In this document: positions 49,097 through 63,605 of the stretch, piece by piece
Layout of the letters: every line of letters starts with the position of its first letter
Numbering within the stretch: position 1 is the first letter of the stretch
NCBI GenBank assembly: GCA_016782315.1
Contig: JADDOQ010000001.1
Location: forward strand, 12,737-76,736
DNA: 64,000 nt
DNA from: Nitrososphaeraceae archaeon
Lineage (GTDB): Archaea > Thermoproteota > Nitrososphaeria > Nitrososphaerales > Nitrososphaeraceae
Reading direction: 5' to 3'
Notes under the pieces: model-generated
Told to the model about the DNA's origin: nothing
Seen by the model: only the letters and a program-made list of their open reading frames with translations
Database searches by the model: none
Program-made: the position numbers and the translations under genes

Positions 49097-49783
49097 TTAT
49101 GATTTAAATGCTGAAGCTAACTCAAATATTTTTTCGTACCAATTATTTGCTTTGGTGATGCTGCTAGAAACCAGTATTCCTTTTGCTCCATACTCTAATG
49201 CCATTTTAACATCTTCATTTTTATTTATTCCTGCTCCACAAATTAATTCAGATATTTGACCTTTCATATTTACCATCTGTTTGCATTCGCGGATTAAGAA
49301 CGGTTTTTCGGATGAGATTGATTTCTGGGTACCAATCAATTCTGGTGGCTCTATTGCAATATAGTTGGGTGCTAGCTCTAGAATTTCCTTTAATTCTTTT
49401 GTTGTTTTTACGCATACAAAAGACAACAAATTTAATTCTTTTAGTTTTTCTATCAATTGCTTTATTTCCGTTGTTTCTATGGGGTGTTCACTATGATTGA
49501 TCAATGAACCCGTAGCCCCTATCTTATCTATTATTTCAGATACATAGTATCCAGTCGTAGACCCGGGCTTTTTTAAATCAACGTGCTGCGATATAACTTT
49601 TAGATTGGTCTGTTTTACTATCAATGCTAAAGAGGGTTGTGGAGGAGAAACGATAATCTCAACATCTAGCCTCTCACTAACCTTCTCTGCATCCTTTACA
49701 AGTTTTATTGTGTTGTCCCCCGATGTTTCCAAGTAATTCTTTAGGTTGATGATTAGAGGACCATCTTTCTTAATTTTCATCAT
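49097..49783 (-). CDS. tpiA: Triosephosphate isomerase (archaeal type)
   Basis: INLKNY, QHVD, NHSEH, EPPELIGT and GAGI. Confidence 0.95.
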   Translation of the reverse strand: MMKIKKDGPLIINLKNYLETSGDNTIKLVKDAEKVSERLDVEIIVSPPQPSLALIVKQTNLKVISQHVDLKKPGSTTGYYVSEIIDKIGATGSLINHSEHPIETTEIKQLIEKLKELNLLSFVCVKTTKELKEILELAPNYIAIEPPELIGTQKSISSEKPFLIRECKQMVNMKGQISELICGAGINKNEDVKMALEYGAKGILVSSSITKANNWYEKIFELASAFKS

Positions 49784-49792
49784 TAGAAATTA

Positions 49793-50875
49793 TTACTTGA
49801 ATTTTTCATTTAGTTTTGAAATTCTTGCCTCATATCCTTTATTATATTCAAGCTCGTCTGGAACCAAAGTAGCTGGATGTACAAATCCTTGAACCCTTAT
49901 CATCATAGCTCTTTCAACTGCCATCATCCTCTGATAATCCCAGTCTGAGGTACCAAAGCCGTCGTGAGGACCGGTAAATTTACCATTGTGCATACTGAAT
50001 AACAAACAGGAAACTATTGGGATTGAATAATTTAGGCTTGCAGCAGAGTTTAGTTTTATTGGCATCAAGGGCATATGATGACTTCCTCTTGTGTTTCCTG
50101 CTACAATGTGTGATTCATTAAACGCACTTCCAGCTTCTTCTGTTGCAGGGAAGTTTTTTTGAGTCCTAACTATTGATATTGGGTCATCTTTTCCCACATA
50201 TGTGCCAGCAATATTGTGCAGCCTGTCAGTAGATGATGAAACTATTTGTTCCCCATTATGAGACAAAACTGAATGCACTACATATCTTCCCGGATACATG
50301 AGCGCAGCTTCAATTTCGGGTTTATCATTCCATAGTTTTAGATCTGCAATCTTTCCGGTCATTACATCCATAATCCTAAATATTGATCCCTTAGCCAATT
50401 CCTCGTTTATAATCAGTCCTGTATTGCTTCCAGTATCTACAAACATTCTCCAAAAGGGAAAATTGTATGCCCCTGGTTCAGTTTTATCAGCTGCGAAGAC
50501 GCAGAATACTTCACTTGGCCTCTCTTCCATTTCTATCTCGGCAACACCAGGTCCCATGCCTTTTACGTTTCCAGAAAATGAATCTTTTAGCAAATCTTGA
50601 CCGGCTCCATAAAGCCCCTGCTCTTTTGCAAGTTTGGTTCCCTCAGTAAAAGCGTCCCATGCTAGTTTGTGTATCTCCTTATTGTCCACGCCTAAAGTAT
50701 GACTCATTATGATGTGAATGTCATCGCCCGTGTATCCAATGTATTTGTCAATAAGCATTCCTTTTCCGTTTTTCATTACGTAATCCTTAACAGTTTGAAC
50801 TAATTCGTCACTGGGTCTAGTGTGTCCTCCTATACCTCCAATGTCTGCCTTTATTGCTGAAACCGTTATTTTCAT
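49793..50875 (-). CDS. fbp: Bifunctional fructose-1,6-bisphosphate aldolase/phosphatase
   Basis: IKADIGGIGGH, GLYGAGQDLL, DKTEPGAYN and YVGKDDP. Confidence 0.96.
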   Translation of the reverse strand: MKITVSAIKADIGGIGGHTRPSDELVQTVKDYVMKNGKGMLIDKYIGYTGDDIHIIMSHTLGVDNKEIHKLAWDAFTEGTKLAKEQGLYGAGQDLLKDSFSGNVKGMGPGVAEIEMEERPSEVFCVFAADKTEPGAYNFPFWRMFVDTGSNTGLIINEELAKGSIFRIMDVMTGKIADLKLWNDKPEIEAALMYPGRYVVHSVLSHNGEQIVSSSTDRLHNIAGTYVGKDDPISIVRTQKNFPATEEAGSAFNESHIVAGNTRGSHHMPLMPIKLNSAASLNYSIPIVSCLLFSMHNGKFTGPHDGFGTSDWDYQRMMAVERAMMIRVQGFVHPATLVPDELEYNKGYEARISKLNEKFK

Positions 50876-51120
50876 AAACAATTTGCCTTTAATGTTCTTT
50901 AAAAATTTTGTGCAAGTGTTTTTATTTAATGTGGTGCTCTTTTGGTGTGTCCATAAAAACTTAAATGCTTGTTATAACCTATTGTGATGTCATGGATATA
51001 CTTGAAAATGAATTGATGTTACCATAATTTTAGTTAAATATTGAAGCTTTTTACTGCATTTGGGGTTCTCGTTGCCAAAAAAAGTAACTAATAAATACCC
51101 ATTATTTTTACTTTACTACT

Positions 51121-51459: not shown

Positions 51460-52647
51460 ATGAATAAAGTTATACTTGCCTTTTCGGGAGGGCTGGATAC
51501 CTCTGTATGCGTAAAATATTTACAAAAATTACATAACTTGGATGTAATTACATTAACTGTTGATGTAGGACAAGATGATGATTTTGATGAAATTGAGAAA
51601 ATCTCTTCGGATTTAGGATCAATTGACCACATCTATATTGATGCCAAAGAAGAATTCGTTAACGAATACGTTGCGCCTGCAATAAAAGCAAATGCTTTGT
51701 ATCAACAAGAATACCCACTTGCAACTGCTATTGCTCGTCCCTTGATTGCAAAGAAGTCTGTAGAGGTAGCTAAAAAACACGATGCTACATCAATTGCTCA
51801 TGGATGTACAGGAAAGGGGAACGATCAAATTCGTTTTGATATTACTATCAAATCACTAAATCCTAATATAAAGATCATTGCACCCATTCGTGATCTTAAC
51901 CTTACTAGGGATAAAGAGATAGATTTCGCTAAAGAAAACGGTATTAAAATAAGTGAAATATCAAAAAAATACAGTATTGATAAAAATTTATGGGGTAGAT
52001 CGATAGAAGGGGGTATTCTTGAAGTCCTCGAAAATGAACCATTGGAAGATGCTTTTGAATATGTTAAATTCGATAATAATTCTGTTGGTAATGTCGACAT
52101 AGGTTTTGAAAATGGAGTACCAGTATCCATAAACGGTAAAAAAGAAGAATTGCCATCTTTAATAGACAAACTAAATCGTATAGCTGGTTCATTTGGGATA
52201 GGTGTTGTTGATCACATTGAGGACCGTGTAATAGGGATAAAATCAAGGGAGGTTTATGAAGCCCCTGCTGCTTTAATCCTTATACGCGCTCACAAAGATC
52301 TTGAAAAACTAACATTAACAAGTCATGAACTTCGCTTTAAGGCAATGGTGGAAGAGCAGTGGTCATGGCTAGCTTACTCCGGATTATGGCTAGACCCATT
52401 ACTTTCAGATCTCAATCAGTTTATAGAAAAAACTCAAGAGAGAGTAACAGGAAAAATAAAGGTTAAAATGCATAGTGGATATTATAGGGTAATAGGGAGA
52501 GAATCAAAATTTTCATTGTATAACAAAGATATTGCGACCTATTTGTCAAATTCAAATTTTGATCAAACTATGGCTAAAGGGTTTGTAGAACTGTGGGGTT
52601 TGCCATCCATAACAGCTAATACTGTAATTTCAGACAATAATGCATAA
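51460..52647 (+). CDS. argG: Argininosuccinate synthase
   Basis: AFSGGLDTS, HGCTGKGNDQIRF and IKSREVYEAP. Confidence 0.97.
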   Translation: MNKVILAFSGGLDTSVCVKYLQKLHNLDVITLTVDVGQDDDFDEIEKISSDLGSIDHIYIDAKEEFVNEYVAPAIKANALYQQEYPLATAIARPLIAKKSVEVAKKHDATSIAHGCTGKGNDQIRFDITIKSLNPNIKIIAPIRDLNLTRDKEIDFAKENGIKISEISKKYSIDKNLWGRSIEGGILEVLENEPLEDAFEYVKFDNNSVGNVDIGFENGVPVSINGKKEELPSLIDKLNRIAGSFGIGVVDHIEDRVIGIKSREVYEAPAALILIRAHKDLEKLTLTSHELRFKAMVEEQWSWLAYSGLWLDPLLSDLNQFIEKTQERVTGKIKVKMHSGYYRVIGRESKFSLYNKDIATYLSNSNFDQTMAKGFVELWGLPSITANTVISDNNA

Positions 52648-52649
52648 AA

Positions 52650-53522
52650 ATGGTTAAATTATGTATTTTCTTTGATAAATTGCGTTTCGAAGAAAAATCC
52701 CTCTATGAGACAGCTATAAAAAACGGAATTGATTGCAATCTGGTTGATTCTAAGAACGTTATTTTAAATACAGAATATCTGACCTCAAATGATTTACGTT
52801 TTGGGGAGATAATATTACAAAGAAGTATCAGTCATTTTAGAGGACAGTTCTTAACGGTTTGTCTGGAAATGCTAGGATATGATGTGATAAATAATTCAAA
52901 AATAGGGGAGATTTGTGGAAACAAATTGTTAACTTCTATGGTTTTAAAAAAAAATAATGTTCCTACGCCAAAATCCATTTTTTCGTTTAACTATGATTCA
53001 GCTTTTAACATTATTGACGAGCAGAATTTAGAAAAAAACCCCCTGGTTTTCAAACCTATATTTGGATCATGGGGCAGAGGTGTATTCCCTGTTAGAAATA
53101 AGGAGGTGGGAAAGATGATTGTTGAAATGAGGCAGGAGAATCCGAGTACATTTTCGAACATTTATTATTTTCAAGAACTGGTTGACAGGCCGCCAAGAGA
53201 CATTAGATGTATAGTTCTAGGAGAACATGTTGTGGCTGCTATCTACCGTTATTCATCCAGTGAAGAATGGCGAACAAATGTTTCAAGGGGTGGAAAAGCT
53301 GAAAAGATAAAGATAACATCCGAGTTGGAAGATGTTGCTGTTAAAGCCGCAAATGCGGTTGGAACTGGTGTTTTAGGAATAGATATGATGGAGGATAAAG
53401 AACATGGGCTGTTGGTCCATGAGGTAAACAACACTGTGGAATTCAAAGGGGCCAGCTCCGCTACTGATATCGATATAGCAAAATTAATAATTGAATATAT
53501 GGTGGATATATACAAAAAATAA
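52650..53522 (+). CDS. argX: RimK/LysX-family ligase, ArgX-like (LysW--glutamate ligase)
   Basis: ATP-grasp KPIFGSWGR and EVNNTVEFKGA. The Gly after EFK is the ArgX-type signature; follows argG. Confidence 0.8.
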   Translation: MVKLCIFFDKLRFEEKSLYETAIKNGIDCNLVDSKNVILNTEYLTSNDLRFGEIILQRSISHFRGQFLTVCLEMLGYDVINNSKIGEICGNKLLTSMVLKKNNVPTPKSIFSFNYDSAFNIIDEQNLEKNPLVFKPIFGSWGRGVFPVRNKEVGKMIVEMRQENPSTFSNIYYFQELVDRPPRDIRCIVLGEHVVAAIYRYSSSEEWRTNVSRGGKAEKIKITSELEDVAVKAANAVGTGVLGIDMMEDKEHGLLVHEVNNTVEFKGASSATDIDIAKLIIEYMVDIYKK

Positions 53523-53648: not shown

Positions 53649-54701
53649 ATGAAGGTTGGAGTGATTGGAGCATCTGGATATGTGGGTGGAGAGTTATTAC
53701 GTCTTTTAGTCACCCACCCTGAAATAGAGATTTCGACTGTTACGTCAAGACAACAGGCTGGAGAGTATGTTCATAGGGTCCATCCAAGTTTGAAAAATTT
53801 CATTACTTTGACATTTTCCGACATGAATCTAGACAAAATAACAAATTCTTGTGACTTGGTATTTGTTTCTGTCCCCCATGGAAAATCCAATAAAATTATC
53901 AATGATTTGCTAAAAAGCGGGGTAAAAATAATAGACCTTTCTGCAGACTTTAGACTTAAGGATCCTCAAGATTATGTGAAATGGTATGGGTGGGAACATC
54001 CATTTCCTGATTTATTGTCAAAATCCGTATATGGTGTACCCGAATTTCACCGAGAAGAGATAAAAAATGCCCAATTGGTTTCCTGCCCGGGCTGTATGGC
54101 AGTTACGTCATTGCTTGCATTAAAACCATTAATAGAAAATGATTTAATTGATACGGATCATATTATTGTTGATAGTAAGATAGGATCATCAGGAGCTGGC
54201 GCAAAATCAAATGCTGGGACACATCATGCTCTCAGATATGGTGTGGTTAGACCTTATAAACCAGCAAAACATCGTCATACTGGGGAAATAGAGCAGGAAT
54301 TAGGTCTTCTCTCCAAAGTTAAAGTTCATGTCAGTATGACCCCCCATGCAGTTAATTTGGTGAGAGGGATATTGACTACTAATCATGTGTTTTTAAAAAA
54401 GCAGTTAAATGAATTAGAGTTATGGAAAATTTACAGAAATGCCTATAAAAATGAGATGTTCATAAGGCTGATAAGGGACAAAAACGGATTCTATAAATTT
54501 CCAGACCCTAAATTTGTGGTGGGTTCAAACTTCTGCGATGTTGGATTTGACATCGATGAGGGTAACAATAGGGTTGTGGCTCTTTCAGCATCTGATAACC
54601 TTATGAAAGGCGCAGCAGGGTCTGCAATACAAAACATGAACGTAATGTTCGGATACGATGAAATGGCGGGGCTGAAACTTACTCCGCTTACACCAGTATG
54701 A
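53649..54701 (+). CDS. lysY: LysW-gamma-aminoadipyl/glutamyl-phosphate reductase
   Basis: GASGYVG, CPGC and DNLMKGAAG. Confidence 0.93.
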   Translation: MKVGVIGASGYVGGELLRLLVTHPEIEISTVTSRQQAGEYVHRVHPSLKNFITLTFSDMNLDKITNSCDLVFVSVPHGKSNKIINDLLKSGVKIIDLSADFRLKDPQDYVKWYGWEHPFPDLLSKSVYGVPEFHREEIKNAQLVSCPGCMAVTSLLALKPLIENDLIDTDHIIVDSKIGSSGAGAKSNAGTHHALRYGVVRPYKPAKHRHTGEIEQELGLLSKVKVHVSMTPHAVNLVRGILTTNHVFLKKQLNELELWKIYRNAYKNEMFIRLIRDKNGFYKFPDPKFVVGSNFCDVGFDIDEGNNRVVALSASDNLMKGAAGSAIQNMNVMFGYDEMAGLKLTPLTPV

Positions 54702-55498
54702 TTGTTATTAAGTTAGGCGGAAGTGTTGTAGAGGGATTACATTCTTCTATATTGGATGATTTTGCAGAGTTATGTAAAACGGAAAAAATTGTTGTAGTCC
54801 ATGGTGGAGGGAAAGATGTTACTAATGTTGCCAACCAGATGGGCATAGAACAAAAATTCATCGTGTCACCAGAGGGTAAACAAAGCAGATATACCGATAA
54901 AGAGACATCAATGATATATACCATGGTTATGTCTGGAAAGATAGGCAAAAACATAACTGCCATGTTATCTAGTAAGGGTATACTATCAGCTGGGATAACT
55001 GGAATAGATGGCGAAACTATTAGGGCTATAAGGAAAAAAAAATTAGTTATTTTAAATGAGAAAGGAAGGAAAATGATTATTGATGGCGGATATACTGGTA
55101 AAGTTTCTTATGTCAATTCTAAACTAATAAATGTTTTATTGGATAGTGGCTATCTGCCTGTGATCTCTCCTATAGCTCTAGGCGAAGGGTATGAATTCTT
55201 AAACATTGATGGCGATAGAGCTGCTGCAAACATTGCTGGTGCATTAAAATCGGACATTGTTATTTTTATAACAAATGTAAGTGGGTTAATGATGGAAGAA
55301 CGGTTGATTAGTAATCTTACTTTGGATGAGGCTACTAAATTATTGCCTAAAATTGGTCCCGGTATGGAAAAAAAAGTGTTGGCTAGTACAGAAGCATTAA
55401 ATCTAGGTGTAAAAAAAGCAATAATAGCATCAGGCTCAGTTAAAAACCCTATTTTATCTGCCCTTGCACATGATAATTGCACGGTGATACTGAAATGA
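54698..55498 (+). CDS. lysZ: LysW-gamma-aminoadipate/glutamate kinase
   Basis: IKLGGS, VHGGG, NIDGDRAA and GMEKK. Confidence 0.93.
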   Translation: MIVIKLGGSVVEGLHSSILDDFAELCKTEKIVVVHGGGKDVTNVANQMGIEQKFIVSPEGKQSRYTDKETSMIYTMVMSGKIGKNITAMLSSKGILSAGITGIDGETIRAIRKKKLVILNEKGRKMIIDGGYTGKVSYVNSKLINVLLDSGYLPVISPIALGEGYEFLNIDGDRAAANIAGALKSDIVIFITNVSGLMMEERLISNLTLDEATKLLPKIGPGMEKKVLASTEALNLGVKKAIIASGSVKNPILSALAHDNCTVILK

Positions 55499-56691
55499 AC
55501 TCCGTTGTAGACGAGGAACATTTTGTGGGTAATATTTATCAGCGATTTCCAGTGAATGTAGTTAAAGGCAAAGGATGTAGCCTTTGGGATACCGATGGGA
55601 AAGAATACATTGACTGTATGGGAGGATATGGGGTTGCTTTAGTGGGTCATTGTAATGATATGGTTGTTAACGCAATCAAAAAACAGGCGGAACAGCTTAT
55701 AACTTGCCATATGTCTTTGTATAATGATTCAAGGCTAGAGTTTCTCAACAAAATTTTTACAATAGTGCCCAAAAGACTAAACAGAGTGTTTTTTTCCAAC
55801 AGCGGAACCGAATCCGTTGAAGCTGCTATTAAATTCTCAAGAAAATATACCACTAAAAAGGGTATCATTGCATTGAACGGATCTTACCATGGGAAAACAT
55901 TTGGTGCGTTGTCTGTTACGTACAATGAAAAATATCGTAAATCCTTTATGCCCTTGTTAGATGGTGTTGATTTCATATCTTACAGTGATCTTGAGAGACT
56001 CGACGACATAATCCACAATCCGAATAATAATATTGGAACTATAATCGTCGAACCTATACAAGGTGAAACGGGGATAATAGTTCCGCCAGAAGGTTTTCTA
56101 AAAAAAATACGTAATATATGTGATAAGTATAGTTTGGTATTGATTTTTGATGAGATTCAATCAGGTTTAGGTAGAACTGGAAAGATGTGGGCAGGCCAAC
56201 ATTGGGGTGTAGAACCTGATATTATGTGCCTGGCAAAGGGAATAGCAGGAGGGGTGCCAATGGGTCTTACACTTGCCCGTTCTGAAATTCTCGATTGCAT
56301 TAAAGTTGGGGAGCATTCATCAACATTTGCGGGGAATCCGCTTGCCTGTGCTGCGGGCTCTGCAACAATAGATTCATTGGTGGATGATAACTTGGTTGAA
56401 AATTCAAAAAGAATGGGGTTGATTTTTAAGGAAGGTCTATTGCGTTTAAAAGAAACTCATAAAATCATTCGCGATGTCCGGGGATTTGGAATGATGTTGG
56501 GGATGGAGATGAAATTTGATATCAAAGATATACTTTTTGATGGCATCAGAAACGGTATTTTGTTGTTATATTCAGGTAGGAACATTTTGAGGTTGCTTCC
56601 ACCTTTGGTGATGGATGAAGATATAACCAAAAAATCAATTAATCTAATAGATAATTTAATTACTAGTGAGGAGAAAAGGCGAACTGTCTGA
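55495..56691 (+). CDS. lysJ: LysW-gamma-lysine/ornithine aminotransferase
   Basis: NSGTES, DEIQSGLGRTG, AKGIAGG (PLP Lys) and STFAGNPLA; ATG overlaps the lysZ stop. Confidence 0.93.
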   Translation: MNSVVDEEHFVGNIYQRFPVNVVKGKGCSLWDTDGKEYIDCMGGYGVALVGHCNDMVVNAIKKQAEQLITCHMSLYNDSRLEFLNKIFTIVPKRLNRVFFSNSGTESVEAAIKFSRKYTTKKGIIALNGSYHGKTFGALSVTYNEKYRKSFMPLLDGVDFISYSDLERLDDIIHNPNNNIGTIIVEPIQGETGIIVPPEGFLKKIRNICDKYSLVLIFDEIQSGLGRTGKMWAGQHWGVEPDIMCLAKGIAGGVPMGLTLARSEILDCIKVGEHSSTFAGNPLACAAGSATIDSLVDDNLVENSKRMGLIFKEGLLRLKETHKIIRDVRGFGMMLGMEMKFDIKDILFDGIRNGILLLYSGRNILRLLPPLVMDEDITKKSINLIDNLITSEEKRRTV

Positions 56692-57118
56692 AAACTTGAA
56701 TTCCATAGATGAAAAAATTATCCGAATATTAAAAAATGATTCAAGAAAATCTTTTGTAGAAATTGCAAATGACATTGGAATGTCGGAATCTGCTGTTAGG
56801 CGTAGAGTGAAAAATATGCAGGATATTGGGGTAATAAAAAAATTCACAATTGATATGGGGCCGTCTAATAAGACTAGTGCAATAACCTTGATATCTGTAA
56901 GCTCTGCAGCAGATACATCTAATGTTTCAAATCAGCTTTTGGGCCTCAAGGGTGTTGATGTGGTTTATGAAATAACAGGGCAATATGATATTGCCACCAT
57001 AATTGTTGCCCCCACAATTTCAGAAATAAACTCCTACATTGATGAAATACGAAAAATAGATGGCGTTTCTGATACAAACACTGTGATAATACTGAGAACC
57101 CTAGTCAATTCGTCCTAA
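56666..57118 (+). CDS. lysM: Lrp/AsnC regulator (LysM-like)
   Basis: DEKIIRILKNDSRKSFVEIA HTH plus RAM domain (YEITGQYD); position inside the lys cluster. Confidence 0.85.
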   Translation: MRRKGELSENLNSIDEKIIRILKNDSRKSFVEIANDIGMSESAVRRRVKNMQDIGVIKKFTIDMGPSNKTSAITLISVSSAADTSNVSNQLLGLKGVDVVYEITGQYDIATIIVAPTISEINSYIDEIRKIDGVSDTNTVIILRTLVNSS

Positions 57119-57251
57119 TTTTGTTATGCATCTTTAATAATAACTATATTGTGATGAATTTCATCACATATTGTTTTTTTACGCAAACAATATTGTTTTT
57201 TATACCTATAACATTTATAAATTAAACGATAACAGTGTTAATGACCATAAT

Positions 57252-58460
57252 ATGTCTCTAAATTCGGATGATCCTAATTATTTTGCTCATATCTATAATG
57301 ATTCTGAAAGAGATAAGAAAAATATTAGGATATTAGATTCCACTTTAAGGGAAGGTGAACAACATCCGGGAGTTTCATTTTCTAACAAGCAAAGAATCCA
57401 AATTGCATGGATGCTCGACTCCTTTGGAGTGGACCAAATAGAAATAAGCCCAATAGTTTCATTGGATCATCGAGAAGCTACAAAAATAATTATCAAACAA
57501 GGCCTAAATGCTGACATCGTGGCTCATGTTCGTGCAATAAAATCTGATGTTGATGTCGCCATCGATTGCAATGCTACATGGGTGGCAACCTATCTTGGTA
57601 TTTCAGACATCCACTTAAAATCCAAGTTACGGATATCTAGGGAGGAAGCTAAAATTAGAGCTTTGGAGGTTGCTGATTATATCAAGTCTCATGGATTAAA
57701 GTCCAGATTTACTATGGAAGATGCAAGCAGAACAGAGCCGGGATTTCTTTTGGATATGTGTAAGGAAATGAGTAACCGCGGTATAGATAGGATCAGTATT
57801 CCAGATACTGTGGGAATTATGAGGCCTCGAGGTATGTATAATATTGTAAAAATGGTCCACAGCCATATTGATAATTCAAAAACTTCACTGGATGTCCATT
57901 GTCATAATGATGTTGGATTAGCACTATCCAATGCCTTGTCAGGATGTGAAGGTGGCGCAGATCAAATTCATACCACCATAGATGGAATTGGTGAAAGAAC
58001 AGGAATACCTACACTGGCAGAGACCGCTGTTGTATTGAGCCTCATATACAAATCCAATAATGATTTTAGGTTACATATGCTAAAGGATCTGTCAAAAACT
58101 ATTTCTGATTATACTGGAATACCTATTCATGAATCCAAACCATTGGTAGGCGATAGTTCCTATAAGCATAAGGCCGGAACGCATCTTGCCGCAATTTTGA
58201 GAAATCCATCGGCTTATGAAATAATCGAACCAAAACAGGTAGGCAATAGGCGTAAAATTGTCTTTGGCGAGCTATCGGGAAAAAATGGCTCTGCGTATCT
58301 TTTATCAATTTTGGGATTAGGTTCATCAAAGGAAAATGCTGAGTCTTTAGCAAAGGGATTAAAAGAATTACGTATGGGTGATATTCTTGAATTGTATTTG
58401 GATGAAAAATTGGAGAGAAAAATACTTAATGAGGGTTATATGAAGACAAATAAGGATTAA
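57252..58460 (+). CDS. Homocitrate synthase (LeuA family, no regulatory domain)
   Basis: DSTLREGEQ, HCHND and GIGERTG; immediately upstream of lysW-lysX-lysK. Confidence 0.85.
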   Translation: MSLNSDDPNYFAHIYNDSERDKKNIRILDSTLREGEQHPGVSFSNKQRIQIAWMLDSFGVDQIEISPIVSLDHREATKIIIKQGLNADIVAHVRAIKSDVDVAIDCNATWVATYLGISDIHLKSKLRISREEAKIRALEVADYIKSHGLKSRFTMEDASRTEPGFLLDMCKEMSNRGIDRISIPDTVGIMRPRGMYNIVKMVHSHIDNSKTSLDVHCHNDVGLALSNALSGCEGGADQIHTTIDGIGERTGIPTLAETAVVLSLIYKSNNDFRLHMLKDLSKTISDYTGIPIHESKPLVGDSSYKHKAGTHLAAILRNPSAYEIIEPKQVGNRRKIVFGELSGKNGSAYLLSILGLGSSKENAESLAKGLKELRMGDILELYLDEKLERKILNEGYMKTNKD

Positions 58461-58462
58461 AA

Positions 58463-58636
58463 ATGACAAAAGTTAATTGTATTGAATGTGACGCAGTAAT
58501 TCCAATACCTGATGACTCAATGCAAGGAGAGATCGTTACCTGCCCGGATTGTGGAGAGAGTTTTGAATTGGTAAAAACCGGTGACGAGTTTAGCATAAAG
58601 CCTGCGCAAGTAGTTGGAGAAGATTGGGGACAATAA
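58463..58636 (+). CDS. lysW: Amino-group carrier protein LysW (57 aa; missed by the ORF track) ending EDWGQ
   Basis: Hand translation MTKVNCIECDAVIPIPDDSMQGEIVTCPDCGESFELVKTGDEFSIKPAQVVGEDWGQ*; two CxxC motifs, acidic. Confidence 0.95.
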   Translation: MTKVNCIECDAVIPIPDDSMQGEIVTCPDCGESFELVKTGDEFSIKPAQVVGEDWGQ

Positions 58637-59508
58637 AAATAGGGGAAGAACAGTCTTCTTCACTCTATATTCTTTTTGATAGCATTAGATGGGAAGAAAA
58701 ATCAATAATTGAATCTGCAAAAAAAAACAATATTGATATAAAACCGATCGATTGTAAAGAACTTATTTTATTTTTGAATAGTGAAACTAAAGAATTTAAA
58801 GATAAAGTTGTCTTACAGCGATGCATAAGTTATTTTAAAAGCATTCATTCTACCGCTGCACTGGAAGGGCTTGGTGCACAAATGATAAACACCCTTTACA
58901 CTTCCATAATGTGTGGTAATAAATTGTTCTCTCACATGGAACTTCAAAAGCAAGGAATAGTTACTCCAAACGCCTTTTGCTCTTTCTCCCCAGCATCTGC
59001 GATTGAAGGAATCCATCGATTAGGCTATCCCGCCGTGATTAAACCAACCATAGGAAGCTGGGGGCGATTGATTGGCCTGTTAAATGACGAAGAAGCTGCC
59101 AAAGCTGTTTTAGAGGATCGTCAACACATGTTTCCAATCTATCAAATAAACTATATTGAAGAATTTGTTAAAAGGCCGCCAAGAGATATACGGGCAATTG
59201 TTATAGCCGATCAAGTGGTAGCTGCCATATATAGATATTCGGGCAAAAATGAATGGAAGACAAATATGGCGTTGGGAGGCCATGCCGAAGCATGTCCCAT
59301 AACGAAAGATCTGGAGGATATTTGTATTAGATCCGCAAAAATTTTTAAAGGTGACATAGTAGGTGTTGATTTGATGGAAAATGAGGCCCATGGTTTATTA
59401 GTTCATGAAGTAAACAATACAACCGAGTTCAAAAACACTGTAAGAGTTACTGGGATTGATATACCGTCGTTGATTGTTGATTACATGATTAAAATTTCCA
59501 AAAAATAG
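58624..59508 (+). CDS. lysX: Alpha-aminoadipate--LysW ligase
   Basis: KPTIGSWGR and EVNNTTEFKNT (Asn signature of LysX). Confidence 0.85.
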   Translation: MGTIKIGEEQSSSLYILFDSIRWEEKSIIESAKKNNIDIKPIDCKELILFLNSETKEFKDKVVLQRCISYFKSIHSTAALEGLGAQMINTLYTSIMCGNKLFSHMELQKQGIVTPNAFCSFSPASAIEGIHRLGYPAVIKPTIGSWGRLIGLLNDEEAAKAVLEDRQHMFPIYQINYIEEFVKRPPRDIRAIVIADQVVAAIYRYSGKNEWKTNMALGGHAEACPITKDLEDICIRSAKIFKGDIVGVDLMENEAHGLLVHEVNNTTEFKNTVRVTGIDIPSLIVDYMIKISKK

Positions 59509-59513
59509 CAAAT

Positions 59514-60638
59514 ATGGTTTCTCCAGCCTTTGCTATAAAATTATTACAGAACTCGTTGGAAATTTATTCGCCATCTAGATCAGAATCAAAACTTGCAAAT
59601 TTTTTAAAAGATGTTTGCATGGATCTTGGGTTTGAGCAAGCAAATATTGATAGCGTGGGAAATATTATTGCAATAAAAGGGACTGGGGATCCTGTAATAT
59701 TACTTTGTGGTCATATGGATACAGTTCCCGGTATTGTTCCAGTCCGCCTAGATGGTGATTATATGTATGGCAGAGGCGCCTCAGACGCAAAGGCGCCTTT
59801 GATTTCTATGTTATTGAGTGCCGCTGATTTTCCTAAACAAACTGGAACTATAATTTTTGCTGGTGTAGTTGATGAAGAAGGCAATGCCACGGGCATAAAA
59901 AACCTTGTCAAAGACAAAAATTTAAGTCCACATTATGCTATTTTTGGTGAACCAAGCGGAATTGATAATATTACTATTTCTTATAAAGGTCGTTTAGAGA
60001 TTCGTTTGCTGTGTGATGTAAATAACAGTGCACATGCAAGTGCGCCATGGCTTTCTTTGAATGCTATCGAGGAAATTTATAGTATATGGAATAGCTTAAA
60101 AAATGTTTTAGACAACATTGATGTCAATACAACTAAAAATAAGGCAAACACTGTAAGTTACAGCATAACCGAGGTAAGTGGGGGATCAAGTCATAATGTT
60201 ACTCCTCAAAAATGCAGAATGACTATTGATATTCGAATACCTAACAGCCTATGTTGCGATGATGTTTTGAATTTATTGGATATAAAAATCAATGAAATTA
60301 CAAAAGAGAAGGGTACAATCATAATTAAATATCATGTAGAGGACAAAACAGAACCTTTTCAAGCAAATGCTTCTTCTCCTTTAGTGAGATCCTTGGTATT
60401 GGCAATTTTGGAAAACAGAAAAAGAAGACCTTTACTGTTAAGAAAAACTGGAACAGGGGATATGAATATTTTGGGTAACCTGTTAAATATACCTGTGGTC
60501 ACATATGGTCCTGGAGACCCGCACTCATCTCATACAGCAGATGAGAGGGTATACATCAAAGAATATCTGACTGGTATAGAAATATTTAAAAATACTGTAT
60601 CTCATATGATAAGGTTGCATAAGAATTTACAAAAATAA
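59514..60638 (+). CDS. lysK: LysW-gamma-lysine/ornithine carboxypeptidase (M20)
   Basis: GHMDTV, GRGASDAK, DEEG, GEPS and YGPGD...SHT. Confidence 0.92.
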   Translation: MVSPAFAIKLLQNSLEIYSPSRSESKLANFLKDVCMDLGFEQANIDSVGNIIAIKGTGDPVILLCGHMDTVPGIVPVRLDGDYMYGRGASDAKAPLISMLLSAADFPKQTGTIIFAGVVDEEGNATGIKNLVKDKNLSPHYAIFGEPSGIDNITISYKGRLEIRLLCDVNNSAHASAPWLSLNAIEEIYSIWNSLKNVLDNIDVNTTKNKANTVSYSITEVSGGSSHNVTPQKCRMTIDIRIPNSLCCDDVLNLLDIKINEITKEKGTIIIKYHVEDKTEPFQANASSPLVRSLVLAILENRKRRPLLLRKTGTGDMNILGNLLNIPVVTYGPGDPHSSHTADERVYIKEYLTGIEIFKNTVSHMIRLHKNLQK

Positions 60639-60737: not shown

Positions 60738-61850
60738 ATGCTCTGTTTAATAGGTGTGGGAATAAATGAATATGATTCTTTGAGTTCTGGCTCTATTGAA
60801 ATATTGAAAAACAGTGATATGGTGTATATAGAAAGATTCACTGGATTTTTATCAGACGAATTTTTAGAAAAAGTAAAAAGTGTTGTGGATGGTTATGGAG
60901 TTTCAAGCCAAAAAAATAGGATTGAGGTTCAATTAGTAAAAAGATGGTTTGTAGAGGATGGGAGGCAAATATTGGAAAATTCATTAAAAGAAAATGTGAG
61001 TATATTGATTTACGGTGACCCACTGATTGCAACCACCTACAATGATCTTCTTGTTAGGGCTAAAAAGCAATCCATACCCTATAAAGTAATTCATTCCTCA
61101 TCTGGAATTCCGTCACTAATAGGTGAGTCTGGACTGCATTATTATAAATTTGGGAAAATGGTTACTATTATGTCTGATCCAATGTCGTCAATAACCGTAT
61201 ACGATACCATATATAATAACATTTGTCTTGGATTACATACTCTGATTCTAACGGAATATAACAATGATTCTGAAAATGATGGTTTAAGCCCCTACAGTCA
61301 GTCCCCTTTTTTTCTTTCTCCAAAAAAAGTTTTTGATCTCCTACTGGAAAGAGAAAATGAATTAAAACTAATCAATTTGTCTGAAAACTCTTTTGTAATT
61401 GTGGCCTATAAAATTGGAACTGAGAGCTCGAAAGTAATATGTGGAAAAATAAAGTCTATGATGAATATTGAGTTTGAGAGTGGTCCTAATTCTATAATTA
61501 TTCCTGGTACTTTACATTTTACTGAAGTTGATTCCATTAAAAACTTGACTGTTGCGTTGGATGATCCCATAGATAACTCTGCCAAAATCGATATACTGTC
61601 CAACAGGATGTTAGACAAATACATTCCAAATGCAAAAAAAGCATTATCCGCCTTATCGTCATTAATAAAAGAAGAAGATATTACTATTAAAAAAGAATAT
61701 TCTGTTGTTTTGGAAAATGCTGAAAACTATCTTTACGATGCCGAAAATTTTTATAAGCAAGGTAGAACGGAACTCGCAATTCTTAGTGTTGGTTATGCTG
61801 AGGGTTTAATTGATTCTATTCGATTCCAAAAAGGCATGAACCCTTGGTAG
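60738..61850 (+). CDS. dph5: Diphthine synthase fused to a DUF357-like C-terminal domain
   Basis: GDPLIATT, GLHYYKFGK, GLHTL and IIIPG..HFTE; tail YLYDAENF...AILSVGYAEGLID. Confidence 0.9.
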   Translation: MLCLIGVGINEYDSLSSGSIEILKNSDMVYIERFTGFLSDEFLEKVKSVVDGYGVSSQKNRIEVQLVKRWFVEDGRQILENSLKENVSILIYGDPLIATTYNDLLVRAKKQSIPYKVIHSSSGIPSLIGESGLHYYKFGKMVTIMSDPMSSITVYDTIYNNICLGLHTLILTEYNNDSENDGLSPYSQSPFFLSPKKVFDLLLERENELKLINLSENSFVIVAYKIGTESSKVICGKIKSMMNIEFESGPNSIIIPGTLHFTEVDSIKNLTVALDDPIDNSAKIDILSNRMLDKYIPNAKKALSALSSLIKEEDITIKKEYSVVLENAENYLYDAENFYKQGRTELAILSVGYAEGLIDSIRFQKGMNPW

Positions 61851-61912: not shown

Positions 61913-63466
61913 ATGTGTAAAACAATGCACTACGATACCAATACTAATTTACCTGGCAATCCAAATAATGACGATAACCCTGATTCTAATGATAATAGTT
62001 ATAGTGTACAACCAAATAAAGAGAAAGTAAAAAAGAAAAATAGTGCTATTGGTCATTTGCCTCCAGAACTGTTGAAATTTGTTAATAACGATACTTATTC
62101 TTTACTTATTAAAGGTAAACCAGGAACTGGAAAAACAACTTTAGCACTTACTTTGATGGACAACCTGAATTATGATAGCAATTATTTTTATATTTCTACA
62201 AGGCTTTCGATTAGGCAACTTTTATATTTTTATCCTTGGATTACAAAATTCACCCTCAACAATGAATTCAATCATGAGTATAAATTTGAGGATGCTAGGT
62301 TGGATGAACCCGAGTCTCTTTTTGAGCGAATTACCAACCAATTAATGGATGTAAAATCTCCAATTATAATAATAGATACATGGGATACTATTGCTTTGTT
62401 TATGGATCGAGAATCAAGGCTGAATAATGAGCGCGTTTTACAAATATGGAGGGAGCGGTCAGGGGCAAAGTTAATTTTTTTGAGCGAATCATCGGATTTG
62501 ACTCTTTTAGATTCAATAGTTGATGGGGTAATTACTCTTAGACAAGAATCAAAAAAATCATATACCTGCAGAGAATTATTTTTTAATAAACTTCGAGGAA
62601 TTCCTATTGATTGTCCGAAATACTGTTTTTCTTTATACAATGGAATATTTTTTGCTTTAGATTCCTCATCAGAATTAAATTTAATTGAAAAGTTCAAAAA
62701 CAATGAACTAAAACATAACGGATATGATTTTAAGGAAACCACTTATTTACCAAACGATAAAAATAAACCATATCAGTCTCCAAATACGTTTTTAAATGAA
62801 ATTATAAACGGCAGCAATATAGTAACTACGGAGTTTGATTCCAGAATACCTAATGAATTGATATCGTCTGTATTGTTTAGGACTCTATTTTCTTGGATAG
62901 TTTCTGCTAAACCCGTCTTAATCAATAATTTTGAATGGGGTTTTTATTCAATCCTAAAGAAAATCCTGCTTTTTTTTGTCCAACCTGAAAAAGTTAATGA
63001 TCTCCTATTAAATGAAAAATTGGATTTTTTCAAAATATATAAAGACTATGTTGCTAACAATGAACAAAATAATTCAACTAAAGAAAACAAAAGTAATTTG
63101 GACGAGTTTGAGGTATCCATAAATAACATTATACCTGCAGTTTACAACAACAACAACAACATAAATCATCATGATGTTTTAAATATAATTGATGGCAATA
63201 ATACAAAAAATTTAATTTCTGACTTTAAATTCATTGACCGCATAAAAAGACTCCATAACATCCATAATCTTGTTATTATTAAAAATAGGTTTTCCCAGGA
63301 TCATAACATTAACAATAGTAATGTATTGCTGTCTGAAGGTAATTATTTTAAAATCTATTTGAAAGGCAATAATATTATAATAAAGTCTATCAGCCCATCA
63401 AAACAAATCTATGGTGCATTCAATCAAAACGATGACTTGTTTGTTGATTGGTACCCTTTAATCTGA
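61913..63466 (+). CDS. RAD55/KaiC-like (GvpD-type) ATPase with a degenerate second domain
   Basis: IKGKPGTGKTT Walker A, IIIDTWD Walker B, DSIVDGVITL and KLRG. Confidence 0.8.
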   Translation: MCKTMHYDTNTNLPGNPNNDDNPDSNDNSYSVQPNKEKVKKKNSAIGHLPPELLKFVNNDTYSLLIKGKPGTGKTTLALTLMDNLNYDSNYFYISTRLSIRQLLYFYPWITKFTLNNEFNHEYKFEDARLDEPESLFERITNQLMDVKSPIIIIDTWDTIALFMDRESRLNNERVLQIWRERSGAKLIFLSESSDLTLLDSIVDGVITLRQESKKSYTCRELFFNKLRGIPIDCPKYCFSLYNGIFFALDSSSELNLIEKFKNNELKHNGYDFKETTYLPNDKNKPYQSPNTFLNEIINGSNIVTTEFDSRIPNELISSVLFRTLFSWIVSAKPVLINNFEWGFYSILKKILLFFVQPEKVNDLLLNEKLDFFKIYKDYVANNEQNNSTKENKSNLDEFEVSINNIIPAVYNNNNNINHHDVLNIIDGNNTKNLISDFKFIDRIKRLHNIHNLVIIKNRFSQDHNINNSNVLLSEGNYFKIYLKGNNIIIKSISPSKQIYGAFNQNDDLFVDWYPLI

Positions 63467-63467
63467 A

Positions 63468-63517
63468 TTTGCTTTGCTTTGCTTTGCTTTGCTTTGCTTT
63501 GCTTTGCTTTGCTTTGC
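63468..63517. repeat. (TTTGC)10 microsatellite
   Basis: Ten perfect pentamers starting 2 nt after the ATPase stop codon. Confidence 0.97.
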
Positions 63518-63605
63518 TTCTCAGTTGTACATTGTGTCTCTTTAGGTGAAAATGATCCAAACATATAAAAATATCTTTATTTGATTGCTTTGGTTATTAT
63601 TTTAT

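Follow-up and report, generated by a model that had tools for sequence, protein, structure and literature searches.

Amino-group carrier proteins of the LysW/ArgW type have been characterised from Thermus thermophilus, Sulfolobus/Sulfurisphaera, Thermococcus kodakarensis and Natrinema gari (PDB 3WWL, 3VPB, 5K2M), that is, from thermophiles and a haloarchaeon. These carriers are Cys4 zinc ribbons of about 55 aa with an acidic tail EDWG followed by a terminal Glu, and in every characterised system it is the gamma-carboxyl of this Glu that is phosphorylated by LysX or ArgX and that subsequently carries the substrate. Structural papers on the LysX, LysZ and LysY complexes have also been published (PMC5076833, PMC4281745, PMC4858999). 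The terminal side chain is required in a canonical system, since the Natrinema ArgW E54A strain is an arginine auxotroph (PMC10433800). Two further systems are relevant here. The first is Pup of actinobacteria, a small protein that is ligated through the side-chain carboxyl of its C-terminal residue by an ATP-dependent enzyme (PafA) forming an acyl-phosphate. Some lineages encode Pup with a C-terminal Gln (PupQ) and others with Glu (PupE), and the depupylase Dop, which removes the tag, also deamidates PupQ (PMC8599861). The second is the RimK family of alpha-L-glutamate ligases (RimK, CofF, MptN), to which LysX and ArgX belong and which likewise activate a C-terminal carboxyl of a carrier-like substrate, but whose other characterised members ligate at an alpha-carboxyl.

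We analysed a window of 64,000 nucleotides from a Candidatus Nitrosocosmicus genome, a soil ammonia-oxidising archaeon (AOA) of the Nitrososphaeraceae (GCA_016782315.1, contig JADDOQ010000001.1, positions 12,737 to 76,736; the genome is 96.5% complete). A sequence-only reading of this window had pointed out an intact lysW between homocitrate synthase and lysX that ends in Gln instead of Glu. This observation proved correct. The locus contains the following features, identified with profile searches and structure-chain comparisons:

51460-52647, + strand: argG, argininosuccinate synthase (PF00764, PF20979); in other AOA argW lies between this gene and argX.
52650-53522, + strand: argX-type second ATP-grasp ligase (RimK, LysX_preATP_grasp), with the GSWGR motif and with TNV and EFKG as in ArgX; it starts 2 nt after argG without a carrier gene in between.
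53649-54701, + strand: lysY/argC, [LysW]-aminoadipyl/glutamyl-phosphate reductase (TIGR01850, 433 bits).
54698-55498, + strand: lysZ/argB, [LysW]-aminoadipate/[LysW]-glutamate kinase (NF010662, 286 bits, cut-off 194).
55477-56691, + strand: lysJ/argD aminotransferase (TIGR00707, 411 bits; LysJ models 341-357 bits, below their strict cut-offs).
56666-57118, + strand: lysM, Lrp-type regulator (NF040947, 181 bits, cut-off 180).
57171-58460, + strand: homocitrate synthase-like gene, first step of the aminoadipate route (TIGR02146, 358 bits, below cut-off; PF00682, PF22617 HCS_D2).
58463-58636, + strand: lysW, amino-group carrier protein of 57 aa with a Cys4 zinc ribbon and the tail VGEDWGQ.
58631-58633, + strand: terminal codon CAA of lysW (Gln57), at the position of the ligation residue Glu of canonical LysW, followed by the TAA stop at 58634-58636.
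58624-59508, + strand: lysX, ATP-grasp ligase of the lysine branch with the GSWGR tail-recognition motif (TIGR02144 LysX_arch, 313 bits, cut-off 276; LysX chains 3VPD/1UC8, E 1e-55 to 1e-51).
59514-60638, + strand: lysK, M20 [LysW]-lysine/ornithine hydrolase and candidate deamidase (TIGR01902, 285 bits, cut-off 163; NF003367 [LysW]-lysine hydrolase, 283 bits, below its cut-off of 363; Thermus LysK 5XOY, E 8e-49).

The encoded carrier, MTKVNCIECDAVIPIPDDSMQGEIVTCPDCGESFELVKTGDEFSIKPAQVVGEDWGQ, starts 2 nt after the homocitrate synthase stop and ends GAA GAT TGG GGA CAA TAA (58616-58636). It scored 84 bits against NF041070 carrier_LysW_Arch (cut-off 75) and 47 bits against PF21344 (cut-off 27), whereas the Thermus-type model TIGR01206 reached only 25 bits against a cut-off of 53. 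The four zinc-ribbon cysteines (C6, C9, C27, C30) and G52-E-D-W-G56 are invariant in the alignment of homologues. The protein aligned end to end with the solved LysW chains 3VPB_E, 3WWL_A and 5K2M_E, which all end EDWGE, so that Gln sits exactly on their terminal Glu. The locus thus has the gene neighbourhood, fold and EDWG tail of a LysW system, and one carrier accompanies two ligases as in Sulfolobus, but the encoded terminal residue is not the Glu that provides the gamma-carboxyl. A sequencing or assembly error is implausible, because in two pattern searches all 13 and all 15 genomes of the genus, respectively, had the Q-ended tail, with CAA in most and CAG in two of them (genomes G005 and G011), and because hundreds of other AOA share it.

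We next sought to determine whether another carrier could take over the function. A translated search and a PF21344 search found no second carrier in this genome, and across 16 Nitrosocosmicus genomes, two of them single-contig, NF041070 found exactly one carrier above cut-off per genome; the weak extra hits were zinc-ribbon pieces inside ORFs of 119 to 719 aa. Every Nitrosocosmicus carrier whose tail or ORF was read ends in Q. None of the 16 genomes has ArgJ or DAP epimerase, which would point to back-up pathways, and the genome-scale model of N. maritimus also needed the LysW route for arginine and lysine (PMC6038301). A hidden argW between argG and argX was ruled out as well, since the gap is 2 nt in the window (52647-52650) and in 14 of the 15 Nitrosocosmicus loci that hold both genes, while in the remaining locus (L026) the two genes overlap by 8 nt. 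Nitrosocosmicus has therefore deleted the arginine-branch carrier gene. In four other Nitrososphaeraceae loci of related genera (L046 3889-4070, L051 3795-3961, L059 3948-4118 and L060 3926-4101), argW survives in that position as a decayed remnant with lost zinc-ribbon Cys and, in three of them, tails such as LNWGH or ACWGQ, while argX stays intact. One GC-rich Nitrosopumilaceae genome seems to have made the opposite loss (locus L120, G250:C1:1775000-1788000), as it has no carrier gene between hcs and lysX and only the E-ended ArgW remains.

The distribution of the Q-ended tail was then examined more broadly. Of 85 database homologues, 60 end EDWGQ and 23 end EDWGE, the other two having odd read-through or duplicated tails. 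In a pattern survey of 401 Nitrososphaeria genomes, 365 have an E- or Q-ended tail and 305 have at least one Q-ended tail, with none among the 64 genomes outside the AOA order. Most AOA have two carriers about 5.8 kb apart, in the order argG-argW-argX-lysY-lysZ-lysJ-lysM-hcs-lysW-lysX-lysK, and all four E/Q combinations exist. By family and genus counts read by eye from the survey tables, all 78 Nitrososphaeraceae genomes have at least one Q-ended carrier and 53 have only Q-ended carriers, as do three Nitrosopumilaceae genomes (56 of the 401 in total). In Nitrosopumilaceae, all but about a dozen of roughly 224 genomes have one E-ended and one Q-ended carrier, and where the gene order was read, the E copy is ArgW and the Q copy is LysW. 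Several non-AOA relatives have a single E-ended carrier before argX and none before lysX, and the second carrier is therefore an AOA-lineage duplication.

These results bear directly on the interpretation offered by the sequence-only reading, which was supported only in part. Its suggestion of Q-ended copies in other AOA was correct, although they are far more widespread than it implied. Of its three proposals, the inactive decoy carrier is refuted for this organism: the condition it had set against its own interpretation, a singleton pseudogene beside a functional EDWGE copy, was not fulfilled, because the ORF is intact, there is no EDWGE copy in this genome or in 15 congeners, and two ligases depend on this one carrier. 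Many other AOA do carry an E-ended copy (ArgW) in the same cluster, but a decoy, regulatory copy, pseudogene or sequencing error is only a remote possibility here. The other two proposals, a deamidation-dependent maturation step and use of the alpha-carboxyl, are both compatible with the sequence data, which alone could not decide between them. The reading missed that most AOA have two carrier paralogs, that E and Q interchange repeatedly in both, and that this genus has lost the arginine-branch carrier.

To reconstruct the history of the terminal residue, we placed the carrier ends on a tree of 115 ligases, in which the upstream and downstream ligases of the window fell into separate ArgX and LysX clades, each with support 100. 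The upstream ligase carries ArgX-type residues at the published specificity positions (V at Thermus position 203 and G at 258), while the downstream ligase carries N at 258, as LysX does. Q is the ancestral partner state across the AOA LysX clade, which includes Nitrosocaldus-like, Nitrosomirales, Nitrosopumilaceae and Nitrososphaeraceae lineages, with at least four reversions to E, one of them in the sister group of Nitrosocosmicus. ArgW is ancestrally E and became Q within Nitrososphaeraceae, with at least two E/Q swaps in this paralog. The first base of the terminal codon changed at least 4 times on 78 tips, compared with 2 to 15 changes at neighbouring synonymous sites, while E53, D54, W55 and G56 never change. 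The terminal residue thus swaps about as often as nearby synonymous sites do, and apart from the two odd tails only E or Q was found.

The partner enzymes were inspected for changes that track the terminal residue, and we found no sign that they were retooled. No LysX column changes consistently in the four lineages whose LysW reverted to E. Of the 62 columns conserved in ArgX with E partners, 55 are kept in ArgX working with Q carriers, and the other 7 are mostly mild, lineage-specific substitutions whose roles are not known. The GSWGR motif, reported to recognise EDWGE (PMC10433800), is unchanged in every ligase where it was found. LysK follows lysX in nearly every locus long enough to show it, and no LysK column separates Q-containing from E-only close relatives. 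The candidate columns (LysX H220, the residue after GSWGR, and LysK C35/C248/L296) follow phylogeny and not the terminal residue. The overlap of lysW with the lysX start was also considered as a reason for keeping Q. In the window lysX starts at a TTG formed by the Asp-Trp codons of lysW (13-nt overlap), whereas many other AOA use the GTG inside CAG-TGA or GAG-TGA (4-nt overlap, GTGA); both arrangements occur with E as well as with Q, so the overlap does not force Q. Where the TTG start is used, an E/Q swap in LysW changes LysX residue 3 (Thr/Pro/Ala/Ser to Arg).

We tentatively favor the view that the Q-ended LysW, as the working and only carrier for both lysine and arginine synthesis in this Nitrosocosmicus, is made as a pro-carrier, although we hold this as a best guess that is somewhat less likely than not. 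In this view, the side-chain amide of the C-terminal Gln would be hydrolysed once to Glu, after which LysX (aminoadipate) and ArgX (glutamate) would load the gamma-carboxyl in the canonical ATP-grasp way, LysZ, LysY and LysJ would work on the tethered substrate, and LysK would release lysine or ornithine and so regenerate the Glu form. All AOA ligases must share one chemistry, because carriers flip between E and Q on short branches without detectable ligase change, and the restriction to E or Q together with their frequent exchange is what one expects if Q is simply a precursor of E. The most economical candidate deamidase is LysK itself, since it already docks LysW and hydrolyses a gamma-glutamyl amide bond, and the Gln side chain is that same bond with NH3 as the leaving group; one turnover per carrier lifetime would be enough. 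PupQ and Dop provide a precedent for this logic, and the alternation of Gln and Glu matches, but the proteins are unrelated: the ligase here is an ATP-grasp enzyme and not glutamine-synthetase-like, and the hydrolase is an M20 metallopeptidase and not a PafA homologue. There is also evidence that fits this view less well. The cluster holds no extra hydrolase, its release slot being occupied by the ordinary M20 LysK, and a PF13230 search of the genome found no stand-alone Cys-Ntn (GATase_4, EgtC-like) amidase, the only hits being a 491-aa ORF (26 bits) and a 609-aa ORF (21.5 bits) of sizes typical of PurF and GlmS. LysK shows no Q-specific signature, and M20 enzymes normally bind the carboxylate of the leaving amino acid, which NH3 lacks. 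Moreover, the E-ended and Q-ended carriers of Nitrosopumilaceae are kept although nearby synonymous sites vary, so Q and E are not strictly equivalent there, which is harder to explain if the mature proteins are identical. What the sequence comparisons establish is that the Q-ended carrier is the sole one in these genomes, is ancient and has been interchangeable with E over evolution, whereas its covalent loading by LysX and ArgX is inferred from its being the only carrier and from the absence of ArgJ and DAP epimerase, and that deamidation occurs, and by which enzyme, is likewise inferred.

The main alternative, which we consider possible but unlikely, is that AOA LysX and ArgX activate the free alpha-carboxyl of the terminal residue, as RimK, CofF and MptN do, and attach aminoadipate or glutamate by an ordinary peptide bond, with the side chain serving only for recognition and LysK acting as a true carboxypeptidase. 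The ligase does belong to this family (TIGR00768, 270 bits, cut-off 143; PF08443), and the reading needs no extra enzyme. It would account for free E/Q exchange without partner changes, and also for why Q and E can each be held under selection as a lasting identity mark in Nitrosopumilaceae. In addition, AOA LysX (window 58624-59508, residues around 190-225; loci L092-L131) differs from canonical LysX of Thermus, of the basal E-only lineages f3, f6, f8 and f14 and of non-AOA at or next to published specificity positions, with F182I, T203M and R205L in Thermus numbering (TNMALGG against TNTARGG) and a basic residue after GG. This change arose near the base of the clade in which Q-ended LysW appears, but it also occurs with E partners, and L205 is found in both LysX and ArgX that have E partners. 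Against this reading, it requires all six enzymes (LysX, ArgX, LysZ, LysY, LysJ, LysK) to have shifted to a linker two atoms shorter at the base of the AOA, yet ArgX working with Q carriers keeps the same WRTNVARGG and GSWGR motifs as ArgX of E-only non-AOA lineages. One would also expect residues other than E or Q among hundreds of carriers, and none turned up, while E54A abolishes function in Natrinema although an alpha-carboxyl is still present. In its strongest form, which we regard as somewhat less likely still, AOA would never convert the glutamine, and the whole carrier pathway of one of the most abundant archaeal groups would run on an alpha-peptide-linked intermediate, a second linkage chemistry for amino-group carrier proteins, with the Gln/Glu side chain as an identity tag that keeps the lysine and arginine carrier pools apart.

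Two further mechanisms appear improbable. Q could be a tolerated near-neutral variant that becomes Glu slowly, by spontaneous hydrolysis or an unspecific amidase, which would be consistent with the near-synonymous rate of E/Q swaps in Nitrososphaeraceae and with recycling of the carrier, by which a single conversion per long-lived molecule would presumably be enough in these very slow-growing cells. However, a C-terminal Gln has no following backbone nitrogen for the fast imide route, so spontaneous deamidation should be very slow. Q has moreover been retained in LysW across the AOA lineages sampled and through CAA/CAG synonymous changes, and organisms whose only carrier is Q-ended would depend on an accident. 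Even less likely is new chemistry directly on the amide, such as ATP-dependent activation of the carboxamide oxygen followed by amine attack, or a transglutaminase-like exchange with loss of NH3. Nothing excludes this, and a first loading by transamidation would give the canonical gamma-linked product. On the other hand, no transglutaminase-like or Cys-hydrolase gene is present in the cluster, no ATP-grasp enzyme is known to activate an amide, and after one LysK release the carrier would be Glu anyway, so that this could only matter in the first cycle.

The surroundings of the cluster were also inspected. Upstream, at 49097-50881 on the minus strand, lie a class V fructose-1,6-bisphosphatase (aldolase/phosphatase type, PF01950) and triosephosphate isomerase. 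The gene after lysK (60738-61850) encodes a tetrapyrrole-methylase-fold protein, probably diphthine synthase-like, fused to a C-terminal DUF357 domain, and a similar 345-aa ORF, judged by its end sequences only, follows lysK in one Nitrosopumilaceae (L005) and one Nitrosomirales (L006) locus. It is followed at 61913-63466 by a 517-aa GvpD/KaiC-like P-loop ATPase with Asn-rich low-complexity stretches at both ends. A short tandem repeat in the intergenic region at 63420-63564 reads KAKQS three times in both small minus-strand ORFs, which suggests a 15-nt unit.

No paper in the literature collection that was searched contains EDWGQ, and papers mentioning LysW in AOA treat it as canonical. Ammonia-oxidising archaea are among the most abundant microbes in soils and oceans, and their metabolic models assume the canonical LysW reaction (PMC6038301). 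Nitrosocosmicus, with one carrier, two ligases, no back-up pathway and cultured strains, is the cleanest test case. If its sole carrier is encoded with a blocked ligation site, every lysine and arginine these organisms make passes through a step that is not in any pathway map, either a carrier-activating deamidation, which would be a convergent counterpart of Pup/Dop, or a different regiochemistry of the ATP-grasp ligases.
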